Source of the DNA: Hormiphora californensis
Taxonomy: Eukaryota > Animalia > Ctenophora
NCBI GenBank assembly: GCA_020137815.1
Contig: CM035359.1
Span: 3,286,001-3,350,000 of the forward strand
Direction: 5' to 3'
Length of the DNA: 64,000 nucleotides
Shown: positions 3,939-6,900 of the stretch, one piece after another
Layout: every line of letters begins with the position of its first letter
Numbering within the stretch: position 1 is the stretch's first letter
Notes under the pieces: generated by a model
Database searches by the model: none
Seen by the model: the letters and a program-made list of their open reading frames with translations, nothing else
What the model was told of the DNA's origin: nothing
Made by a program: the position numbers and the translations under genes

Positions 3939-6900
3939 TCAATAAACCTTGCACCGTTTCAGTCTGTCCTCGCTGCCCATGGGTGACTCCCTACCCCCGG
4001 GCGGGAGGGCTAAATCTCCCTCATCCCCACTACTAGGACAGTCTGTATCAGGTGCAAGCATTCTGAACCCCTCAAAAATAAACCAGTGGGAGAGTATGTC
4101 CTGCCAAGTCAGCTTGAGACGACGGGCAAACGCTTGGGCTACCGATTTGGGTCTCTGAAAATGAGATAGAGAAAGTGAGATAAAGAAAATGGGATAATCA
4201 TAGATAGAGGTATGACCTTCTGATGTTCATCTGCATTTTTTGTCTTTTTCAGATCCTTCCGCGTGAAATATTGATTGCTTACAAAGTACAAACTAAATTA
4301 TTTACCTCGAGGTCCGAAAAGCTGAACTTACATTTATTTGATCGGAAACATCGTTCCCATACACGTTCCCGTATACATCCTCGAAGCACGCGAAACTGTA
4401 CTCCGCAATAAGGAAAAGAAAACTTGTCACGACGCCAATAAAGATAACAGTGAACAGCCCAGACAGATTCTTCATATCCAATTTAGAGGTCGATTGTTGG
4501 ACGTTCTGTTTGCCATTCTGAAATGTATTTGAAATTCGGTTTAGAAACATTCCTTGTGGTTTTGTAGGATCGCAGACCACTAGATCAGCTGACAGAAGTG
4601 GTTGATTACTCAACAAGACAGAAGTCACATATTTACCACGCAAGCGGTTGCTGTTTCGTTCTTGTTTCTGGATTTGAGCGCCTTTGCTTCCGATTCCTCT
4701 CTCGCTTGATCTTTTATTTTTTCCTAAAATCAGAGAAGCTGTAAAGAAAGGGCTACTGGGCTAATACCATTTTGCTAGAGTTCACCTGGAGTTTAACTAA
4801 TTGTAATTAATTAAAGTATTTAACCGCTCACCCAATCATTATCAAGTTCATTCTTTTCTCTCAGCTTCAGAATTACATTGTTGAAGAGGTCAAGGTGAGG
4901 GGAGTTAGGAGGGAATCCAAACGCGAACCTACAGGATCAGATCAGTCATGCAATGAGAATTTTAGTCTTTAACTTTTCAGTTTTCGGGGGGGGGGGGGGG
5001 TGGCCGGTGGAGCTATATATGACCATGCAGGAAATATCACAAAACCCAATTAAGATCGGCATTTTTAGTTTGGATTCTACTTTAAATGCGGAACTGCAAA
5101 CTTATGCCTTTGACTACTGACTATAATCCTATGCTAACCAACCTTTTGCCAAAAACATACCCGAATTTGCTGAATTTCTCCCCAGCGATAACCAAGTTAC
5201 ATGTCTGTTGGACCTGGTACTCCAAATACGCACTCTCGTAGATAAACGCATAGTTCTCCTAGGACAAGAATTTCAATTATGATATGCATATCATGGTCGA
5301 ACAAGGCAAGGAAAATGGCATGCACTGGAATTGTAGTAACTAAGTCTGACCAAGCTAAAAGTGATGAACGTGTTTTACCTTTGCAACTCGCTCTATTCCC
5401 TTTTCAGCATTATCAACGTTATCCAAATTATCAGCTAACTTCTTATACTCGACTTTCTCACTCCCCTTTAGCAGTGTTTCCGGGTTAGTTGAGTTTACTG
5501 TGCCCCATTTTAGCTTGTTTTGTGTTAACAAATCCTCCACATCCTTAATACCGGCCTTCATTCTCGTCACTGCGTGGGAGAGAGGGAGCTGGGTTGAAGG
5601 TATATAGAGCTAGATGTTTGTTAGTACTTGCCATGCTACGCAGTCTGTCTATCGGCAATTAAGCGCCTCGCGTAAGCTCACACCGGGCCTTCGGCCCGGT
5701 GTGAGAGCTGACAGACCAGGAACATGTCAAGTTAGTACCTGATGCAGCTGCAGCTTGCTTAGATACGGTACAAGAATTCATGTGAATCATGCCAAAACGG
5801 CCAAAAAGTATCAAAAACACAGGAAAACACGCGGCCATGCAAGTATACTTCCCATGTTTTTGTATGAAAGCTAAAACCCGGTATATCATGCAGCATGAGT
5901 AACATAATAATTCATGCAAGTATTGCCATGGTAACGTGAGAATTCATGCTATATGTACCGGTGAGGAAGGCAGCAAGGTTGGCGGTGTACATGGCGATGA
6001 GAATCATCATGAAAAACCACCATACTGAGAGGATAGTCCTCCCGCTGAGACAATAGGGGGCACCCTCTACCGGTCCTTGCTGGAGTAGGGAGGCAACCAC
6101 AAGCCAGGCAGAGTTACCCATGTTCAACCATTCTAGAGGGGGGAAGGGAGGGGGCTGGTGTAACTATGGAGTAACTATGGGGTAACTAGGTTGGTAACTA
6201 TGGTTACCATAGAGACGAAATGCGATGGGATGTGACTTCTCCTCTTTGTACACTCGCCAACCATGCCGCCTTCCTCACCGATACAGACAGGGGTACAATA
6301 CAAACCAACCACACAATGTTACCATGGTAACCAAATGATAACCACACAATGATAACCTGTGAAGAAGGCGGCCAGGTTCGCGACGTACATAGAGAAGAGG
6401 ATAATAACAAAGTACCAAATACACGAGAGCAACATCCTGCCGCTTGTGCTGGAGGAGGCTCCGTAAATGACGCCTTGTTTCAGAAAGCTACTGTCAATCA
6501 ACATTACGGAGCCATAGATCGAGAGAGCCTCTAGGGGAGGAGAAATTTACGGGCCCGTAGATCGAGAGAGCCTCTAGGGGAGGAGAAATTTACGGGCCCG
6601 TAGATCGAGAGGGCCTATATGAGGGGAGCTTGGTCTAGAGTCTCTAGGAGGGGAGGGGGAGTTTGTGATTGGCCGGGTTTCCCCAACTGCACAAGAATGG
6701 GGGATAGAGCCTCAACCAAGGAATTTGAAGAGAATTTAAACATATTCTGAGAATTTGGAAGATTTCTAGGAACTATTATAGACTCAGCTATTATAATCGT
6801 ATCTTACCCAATCGGTCCTCCCCATAATTATCTACCTCCTCAACCAGACACTGGTAACTCTGCCATTTTATCAAACTCCTACTCTTATTCTGGTTGGGAA

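Follow-up and report, generated by a model that had tools for sequence, protein, structure and literature searches.

Tandem pore exons of a ctenophore glutamate receptor gene, probably spliced either/or, encode different residues at the Q/R site

Ca2+ entry through glutamate receptors is classically controlled at the Q/R site, and its setting by RNA editing in vertebrates is essential for life. A gene for an ionotropic glutamate receptor (iGluR) in the ctenophore Hormiphora californensis raises the question of whether this site could also be set by splicing. The gene was analysed within a stretch of 64,000 nucleotides (nt), here called the window (assembly GCA_020137815.1, contig CM035359.1, positions 3,286,001 to 3,350,000 of the forward strand). 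Coordinates are counted from the first letter of the window, and the gene and its exons lie on the minus strand. The gene contains two tandem exons, here named A and B, which encode the M2 pore loop and the M3 segment. Exon A places glutamine (Q) at the Q/R site and glutamate (E) at the +4 acidic position, and exon B places lysine (K) and tyrosine (Y) at the same two positions. It is probable that the two exons are spliced either/or, so that one receptor gene would give either a Q/E or a K/Y selectivity filter.

Two tandem pore exons of equal length and phase

Exon B, (E)ALSIYGSVMLIDSSFLKQGVIYGASSSTSGRMLLSCIWYFVIILFSMYVANLAAFFT, spans 6357..6530, and exon A, (E)WLNMGNSAWLVVASLLQQGPVEGAPYCLSGRTILSVWWFFMMILIAMYTANLAAFLT, spans 5959..6132; both are 174 nt long and of phase 1/1, and the sequence between them is an intron of 224 nt (6133..6356). 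Each copy is preceded by a pyrimidine tract and AG and followed by GT. The constitutive exon upstream of the pair (6808..6889; ...SLIKWQSYQCLVEEVDNYGEDRL), located by tblastn and by an RNA contig, encodes the M1-M2 linker, ends in the G of a split Glu codon and is followed by the 5' splice site GTAAGA. Its last G (6808) forms a Glu codon with the first two bases of either exon (AG or AA), and the final G of either exon forms GTG (Val) with the TG at 5569. That position opens the downstream constitutive exon (5379..5569), identified from the sequence and by tblastn, in which the S2 domain starts with (V)TRMKAGIKDVEDLL...GIERVAK. The upstream exon can thus be joined to either member of the pair, and either member to the downstream exon, with the same reading frame.

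The translations of the two exons are identical at 27/56 positions with 0 gaps (BLASTP, E 2e-17), and at the DNA level 112/221 aligned columns are identical, flanks included. Both match the Pfam family Lig_chan (PF00060) at positions 42-95 of its 146-position profile, exon A with 64.8 bits and exon B with 38.4 bits (cut-off 30.8). Each exon covers the M2 pore loop together with M3, and the motif ANLAAF is present in both. The homology of the pair is therefore confirmed as real and far beyond chance. Adjacent, homologous exons of equal length and phase, each with its own splice signals, were found in the window and also in a metagenome contig from a relative, described below as L001.

A first-pass annotation of this DNA had described two exons of 174 nt and phase 1/1 that complete a Glu codon, with a gapless alignment over M2-M3 and the codons CAG at 6082-6080 and AAA at 6480-6478. 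Its coordinates held when they were reread on the minus strand, the BLASTP alignment likewise contained no gap, and the two codons were found at the places given.

The acceptor of exon B lies in a tandem repeat with a 43-nt unit, present in three copies at 6504..6632 on the minus strand (6504-6546; 6547-6589, 93%; 6590-6632, 72%; period 43, 2.6 copies, 94% matches). The unit is composed of the exon B polypyrimidine tract, the AG and the first 27 bases of the exon. Use of an upstream copy of the acceptor would add 43 nt, shift the frame and reach a stop codon.

The exons differ at the Q/R site and at the +4 position

The place of the Q/R site was established with phmmer against PDB chains, in which 234 distinct iGluR sequences were matched. 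The exon A sequence ...SLLQQGPVEGAP... aligned with ...AFMQQG-CDISP... of AMPA receptors, so that the first Q of SLLQQG in exon A corresponds to the first Q of FMQQG. Given the gap that HMMER places after QQG, the +4 acid D590 is matched by the E of PVEG in exon A. When these positions are carried over with the ungapped alignment of the two exons, exon B has K (AAA, 6480-6478) at the Q/R (or Q/R/N) site and Y at +4, where exon A has Q (CAG, 6082-6080) and E. The phmmer alignment and the ungapped alignment together thus make the alternative residue homologous to Q586 of GluA2. The relevant passages of PMC6307864 give the Q/R site as Q586 of mature rat GluA2 and state that Q586 and D/E590 govern Ca2+ permeability and polyamine block. 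As encoded, the exchange of cassettes alters both of the residues named there.

In an alignment of five sequences, the K/Y pattern and ANLAA were retained in 3/3 B sequences. The other fixed differences from A to B were the pore-helix W, replaced by M or L, a V or I within M2, replaced by D, and the T of the gate motif YTANLAAF, replaced by V. Overall, 30/57 whole codons of the cassette differ between exons A and B of the window.

The effect of a basic residue at this position is documented in other receptors. According to parts of PMC12226733, an N-to-K change at the Q/R/N site of GluN2A reduces Ca2+ permeation and Mg2+ block, and passages of the KaiR1D preprint report that philanthotoxin block and in vivo function are lost with Q604R. 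In the ctenophore receptor, a lysine at the Q/R/N position and the lack of the +4 acid in the ring of subunits would be predicted to lower divalent permeability, polyamine block and conductance, akin to the edited GluA2(R). By analogy, little Ca2+ permeation, weak rectification and a low conductance are expected of receptors that contain the B form, and the effect of the basic Q/R/N residue should be reinforced by the missing +4 acid. R-form AMPA and kainate channels reportedly show an anion leak, as Burnashev is said to have found in 1996, and by the same analogy an anion leak through B-containing receptors is possible. Splicing would in this way give the ctenophore gene what ADAR editing gives vertebrates.

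The iGluRs of ctenophores are classed as epsilon in the passages of PMC12226733 and PMC6307864 that deal with this group. In the corresponding part of PMC12226733, the Q/R/N residue varies across the epsilon receptors of Mnemiopsis, and in most of them it is glycine.

Exon B is conserved in relatives and maintained by selection

A protein search with exon B gave three matches among 24 candidates (P0008, P0007 and P0002), and a search of short proteins added a fourth (P0014). P0008 is isoform X2 of the Bolinopsis microptera receptor in RefSeq and is 77% identical across the whole of exon B. In tblastn the identity between exon B and this isoform was 78%, a value that only 2/20 of the other high-scoring segment pairs (HSPs) along the gene equalled or exceeded. 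P0007 is an open reading frame (ORF) from ENA that represents genomic read-through of exon B, and P0014 is a second ORF of that kind. P0002 is a Mnemiopsis-type ab initio gene model in which exons B and A are strung in series and M1 is dropped. Its serial arrangement of B and A is most likely a prediction artefact, which is possible since both exons are in frame. For exon A, two of the six proteins matched at E<=0.001 among the 24 candidates were a Hormiphora californensis protein (P0003), with 100% identity, and a Mnemiopsis leidyi protein (P0005), with 93%.

The Bolinopsis isoforms X1 (P0009) and X2 are both 1095 amino acids (aa) long and differ at 31 residues, all of them within 775-830. 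X1 carries an A-type cassette and X2 a B-type cassette, each inserted between ...YGEDRLE and VTRMR.... The first-pass annotation had predicted that one or the other exon would be placed between the same two constitutive exons, and this pair of isoforms matches the predicted pattern exactly.

A HMMER search of 1.84 billion representative sequences gave 21 proteins at E<=0.001, and only P0002, P0014 and P0007, all B-type, reached E<=1e-10. Nine of the 18 weaker matches were inspected at the Q/R place, where six had Q, two had G and one lacked the region; none of the nine had K or R. As far as the searched libraries show, the K cassette appears to be confined to the present ctenophore gene.

The genomic arrangement in a second ctenophore was recovered from a metagenome contig of 1501 nt (L001), which was found with a degenerate DNA pattern for MYVANLAA(F/Y)FT and was the sole useful contig. 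A metagenome scan with the exon B alignment gave 264 pattern matches, none of which was confirmed. On its minus strand, L001 contains the M1 exon and a short linker exon with its end at 630. Exon B (542..369) and exon A (246..73) come next, both 174 nt long and separated by a 122-nt intron. Its exon B reads ...LIDSSFLKEGVVYGAS...MYVANLAAFFT. At 484-486 (-) of this contig an E follows the lysine (FLKEG, where the window has FLKQG), an acid beside the basic Q/R-site residue.

Between the window and L001, by the Nei-Gojobori method, exon A is conserved at 53/57 aa, with a proportion of nonsynonymous differences (pN) of 0.07, a proportion of synonymous differences (pS) of 0.72 and dN/dS of 0.03. 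For exon B the values are 44/57 aa, pN 0.18, pS 0.83 and pN/pS 0.22. Synonymous sites are saturated between the two sequences, and both exons are under purifying selection. Exons A and B are identical at 26-27/57 positions, both within a species and between species. This uniform distance, together with the conservation of each exon, indicates that the duplication predates the split of the lineages and that both copies have been under selection since.

A check of exon B conservation and dN/dS in relatives had been proposed by the first-pass annotation, with absence, stop codons or neutral evolution of the exon counted against its reading. In L001 exon B is present, open, 174 nt long and flanked by splice signals, and its pN of 0.18 against a pS of 0.83 is not that of a neutrally evolving sequence.

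RNA evidence for the A form

The RNA evidence consisted of two runs, a metatranscriptome (X1) and a run with contigs from a relative (X2). One contig of 151 nt from run X1 lies with 0 mismatches on 6808-6891 and 6070-6132 and joins 6808 to 6132, so that exon B is skipped; this junction had been listed for checking beforehand and is present in this one contig. In run X2, contigs of the relative lie on exon A (5993-6130) with 23-24/138 differences, which are three bases apart wherever they are listed. These contigs continue into ...DNYGEDKLE, which in a loose-end reading is the upstream exon of the relative. The A form is present in RNA. We infer that exon B is spliced in H. californensis and that exons A and B are never joined.

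An intronic antisense element that could select between the exons

The intron between exons B and A contains an antisense copy of the 3' end of the pore exon (the ...MYTANLAAFLT codons and the first intron bases), found in a repeat scan at 6238..6290 on the minus strand and regarded here as a candidate docking element. It is 86% complementary over 36 nt to the last codons and 5' splice site of exon A (5949-5984), and 84% complementary over 25 nt to the last codons of exon B (6359-6383). The intron of L001, which is much shorter, is almost wholly antisense to codons from the exon's middle (SGRTILSVWWF). Its complementarity to exon A extends over two stretches, of 17 nt (94%) and 11 nt (100%), and that to exon B over one of 27 nt (74%).

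When the reverse-complemented intron was aligned locally with each exon, the scores were 56 (A) and 40 (B) in the window and 36 (A) and 34 (B) in L001, against maxima in 300 shuffles each of 28 and 25, and of 24 and 23, respectively. The predicted duplex energies were -76.8 (A) and -64.7 (B) kcal/mol in the window and -75.3 (A) and -64.7 (B) kcal/mol in L001, with z from -6 to -10; these values are for core segments, since the whole-exon RNAduplex structures were over-extended. The pre-mRNA from the end of exon B to just past exon A was predicted to fold with z-scores of -6.12 (window) and -5.79 (L001), and 0/100 shuffles were as stable in each case. In the minimum-energy structures of both sequences the intron element is paired with exon A. 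The window and L001 therefore each have a single element with two alternative partners and predicted pairing far beyond chance, which agrees with a docking-site/selector scheme.

Traces of the same kind of element appear in other relatives. The lobate read-through ORFs contain the peptides DRMVLPE (P0014) and DGPPRAH (P0007) shortly after exon B. In our own reading, both would be antisense translations of the SGRTIL codons of exon A: DRMVLPE matches an ORF on the plus strand of L001 (12..170), and DGPPRAH is the L001 element in another frame. The lobate-type element thus seems to recur in relatives whose surrounding intron translations differ, judged in two of them from the ORF translations only. 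Also in our own reading, each element appears to follow the synonymous codon choices of its own species despite saturated sites.

A possible mechanism of exon choice would follow from this arrangement. The single antisense element in the B-A intron would pair with exon A or with exon B, one at a time, and the pairing would hide the paired exon or its 5' splice site and so favour exclusive use. The intron element would then act as the docking site, and the duplicated exons themselves as the selectors. Taken on its own, the proposal of an RNA-structure selector with one intronic antisense element and two exon partners is tentative, with the balance tipped slightly against it.

Both alternative exons have weak 5' splice sites (GTTATC and GTACAT in the window; GTACGC and GTGATT in L001), and the upstream constitutive exon has GTAAGA in the window and GTAAGG in L001. 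Three other ways of keeping the exons apart were considered and rejected. Transcripts with both exons or with neither remain in frame (174+174), so nonsense-mediated decay (NMD) cannot police the choice, and exclusivity enforced by frame and NMD was discarded. Steric hindrance was discarded since it would call for a shorter B-A intron than those of the window (224 nt) and of L001 (122 nt). Incompatibility of U12 and U2 splice sites was discarded since the four 5' sites of the alternative exons are unlike the U12 consensus.

Other short elements were seen around the pair. A stretch in the 5' part of exon A (6107-6123) is complementary over 17 nt, at 88%, to a stretch of the upstream constitutive exon (6848-6864), which may be chance; if this pairing were real, exon B would be looped out. 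Just upstream of the exon A pyrimidine tract, at 6156-6205, a unit of 11 nt (GTAACTATGG-like) is repeated in tandem in 3-4 copies, and GGTAAC/GTTACC palindromes related to this repeat follow exon B and exon A.

Alternative explanations

Several observations speak against a splicing switch at the Q/R site. In the two RNA runs, compared at 88% or 80% likeness, no contig lay on exon B and neither the junction 6808 to 6530 nor 6357 to 5569 was seen; neither run reaches exon B, so this result is uninformative either way. Bolinopsis X2 is a computed RefSeq model, exon B scores lower than exon A on the family profile, and the duplicated acceptor could reduce productive use of exon B in this genome. 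To these can be added that exon A is the one present in P0003, P0004 and P0005, which are transcript-derived or annotated proteins. The lack of RNA, the low Pfam score, the acceptor copies and the A-type proteins are what would be seen if exon B were a dead or dying pseudo-exon, never productively spliced, with a meaningless lysine. That explanation is very improbable and was rejected, because the protein has been kept while pS is saturated and exon B is still 78% identical to Bolinopsis X2. Further, the exon has an open frame, 174 nt and AG/GT in two genomic sequences despite the pS of 0.83, its pN is 0.18, and 44/57 aa are retained in comparison with L001 and with the Bolinopsis/Mnemiopsis-type sequences. 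K, Y and ANLAA are present in all three aligned B sequences, and the RefSeq isoform X2 uses B. It is also conceivable that exon B is used in a role other than a strict ion-selectivity switch, as a non-conducting, dominant-negative or trafficking subunit, or that the gene is sometimes turned down through B+A transcripts or a frame-shifting acceptor. The in-frame outcome of both-in or both-out splicing, the P0002 model with B and A in series and the out-of-frame acceptor copies upstream of B agree with such roles, and the loss of W together with the D in M2 could possibly leave a subunit with exon B non-conducting or purely modulatory. We consider these roles improbable: purifying selection extends across the entire cassette, M3 gate motif included, and argues for a folded, working pore segment, Bolinopsis X1 and X2 carry one cassette each, and a doubled M2-M3 would presumably add a membrane pass and should invert the topology of S2 and M4.

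The antisense copies, for their part, may not be selectors. The elements cover different parts of the exon: in the window this is the 3' end, in L001 the middle. Inverted duplication could have produced the pairing as a by-product, and exon A, which is the form observed in RNA, is the stronger predicted partner in each species. The copies could be neutral leftovers of inverted duplication, or substrates of ADAR for A-to-I editing of exon A, and we take this as a real possibility, while leaning away from it. The elements are plainly inverted partial copies of the exon, located on different exon parts in each lineage, and the 43-nt tandem repeat nearby attests to recent local rearrangement. An exon-intron duplex has a precedent in GluA2 editing, which is directed by a base-paired exon-intron structure, as Higuchi reportedly described in 1993. 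Against neutral relics, each element appears to track the synonymous codons of its own species, where decay would be expected of relics that predate the split, and the lobate-type element seems to recur in three sequences with differing intron translations around it. A duplex for site-specific editing would be expected on a constant part of the exon. The run X1 contig has 0 differences from the DNA over 6070-6132, a stretch outside the part of exon A that is paired with the element. The either/or use of exons A and B is the reading that we prefer. The fullest version of the proposal is an independent ctenophore switch of the Q/R pore, with Q/E and K/Y exons, a choice enforced by the antisense element, and a Ca2+-permeable, polyamine-blocked channel opposed to a Ca2+-impermeable channel that is of low conductance or partly anion-permeable. 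With all of its parts together, it is rather unlikely to be correct.

The receptor gene and its surroundings

The whole iGluR gene was mapped to 4044..23187 (-) by tblastn with ctenophore orthologues (22 HSPs with P0003 and 21 with P0008), and comprises the amino-terminal domain (ATD), a Cys-rich linker, the ligand-binding domain (LBD), the transmembrane domain (TMD) and a C-tail. Residues 2-1071 of the 1109-aa Hormiphora californensis protein P0003 map to 23187..4047 (-) in 22 HSPs, with 46-100% identity per piece. The complete ATD-LBD-TMD architecture is thus contained within one gene, as seen from the tblastn span and from the orthologues, which carry PF01094, PF10613, PF00497 and PF00060. 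One S1 exon scored 25.2 bits against PF10613, under the cut-off of 30. At the sensitivity of tblastn, the window holds one iGluR gene only, with the pore exon present twice and no further copy.

One intron of the receptor gene contains, in the same orientation, an intronless cathepsin-L-like gene (16206-17468, -), which matches Pfam Peptidase_C1 with 181.5 bits and the propeptide family Inhibitor_I29 with 27 bits. The EukProt model P0001 is a chimera in which this gene is fused with receptor exons. A long (CA)n/(TG)n microsatellite occupies ~8500-8870, in the intron between an S1 exon (8291-8401) and the following exon.

Outside the receptor gene, three tandem and highly similar long ORFs (342, 417 and 248+145 aa; ...DDNFSLLTKWAPTAKDLDMSDEEFDLLPRI...) at 25909-32687 (+) represent a local gene triplication. 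At 47103-49838 (-), a Cys-rich ORF that encodes a membrane segment and a tail rich in proline (...GDYCYNTKCKNYDGSYI...) is repeated in tandem. Long low-complexity tracts of (GA/CT)n and (GT)n are found at 23900-24900 and 37550-38300.

Significance and comparison with known systems

Ctenophores are a lineage whose nervous system may have had a separate origin, and a switch of this kind would be a case of convergence by a different molecular mechanism. The Bolinopsis isoforms X1 and X2, 31 residues apart, are a natural pair for probing pore charge in ctenophore signalling, and the compact intron of 122-224 nt with an antisense copy of the exon would be a small, tractable model for the control of exon choice by RNA structure. 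Mutually exclusive tandem exons are already known as a type, and RefSeq already contains the two Bolinopsis isoforms. What is new is that such a pair is found in a ctenophore, that the basic residue is K instead of R, that the +4 acid is lost in the same exon, that the pair is conserved between deep ctenophore lineages, and that the intron contains an antisense element. A full-text literature search, together with passages of PMC13520880, PMC12226733, PMC6307864 and the KaiR1D preprint, gave no description of alternative pore exons in any iGluR, and the parts of PMC12226733 that concern the Mnemiopsis epsilon receptors make no mention of splicing.

The nearest arrangement within the iGluRs is flip/flop, the mutually exclusive tandem exons of AMPA receptors, which are located at the LBD according to the pertinent passages of PMC13520880. 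Like the ctenophore pair, these are tandem, homologous exons of equal length; they are used singly, as is probable for the ctenophore pair. They differ in lying at the back of the LBD, where they tune desensitisation, whereas in the ctenophore gene the selectivity filter and the gate are encoded by the alternative exons.

In excerpts of PMC6071210 and PMC7797038, the competing docking-site/selector structures of other genes are proposed to arise from tandem exon duplication, and the arrangement in the ctenophore gene agrees with the proposal of PMC6071210. The systems of Dscam, srp and ATE1 resemble the putative ctenophore element in having one element with at least two partners and one pairing at a time. 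In the present gene, however, both partners are parts of the duplicated exons, with the one element placed in the intervening intron, an arrangement known here from sequence and computed folding.

Mutually exclusive exon pairs also occur in the pore segments of Cav and Nav channels, where splicing likewise swaps a pore-lining segment. These belong to other channel superfamilies, and their exon pairs do not concern the Q/R site of an iGluR.

The closest functional parallel is the Q/R editing of GluA2 (and of GluK1/2) by ADAR2. There, as in the ctenophore gene, one gene provides either a neutral Q or a basic residue at the same pore position, and in GluA2 too an intronic sequence is complementary to the pore exon. 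In contrast to GluA2 editing, the ctenophore gene encodes both residues in separate exons, has K and not R as the basic residue, and changes the +4 acid and the T of the gate motif in the same exchange.

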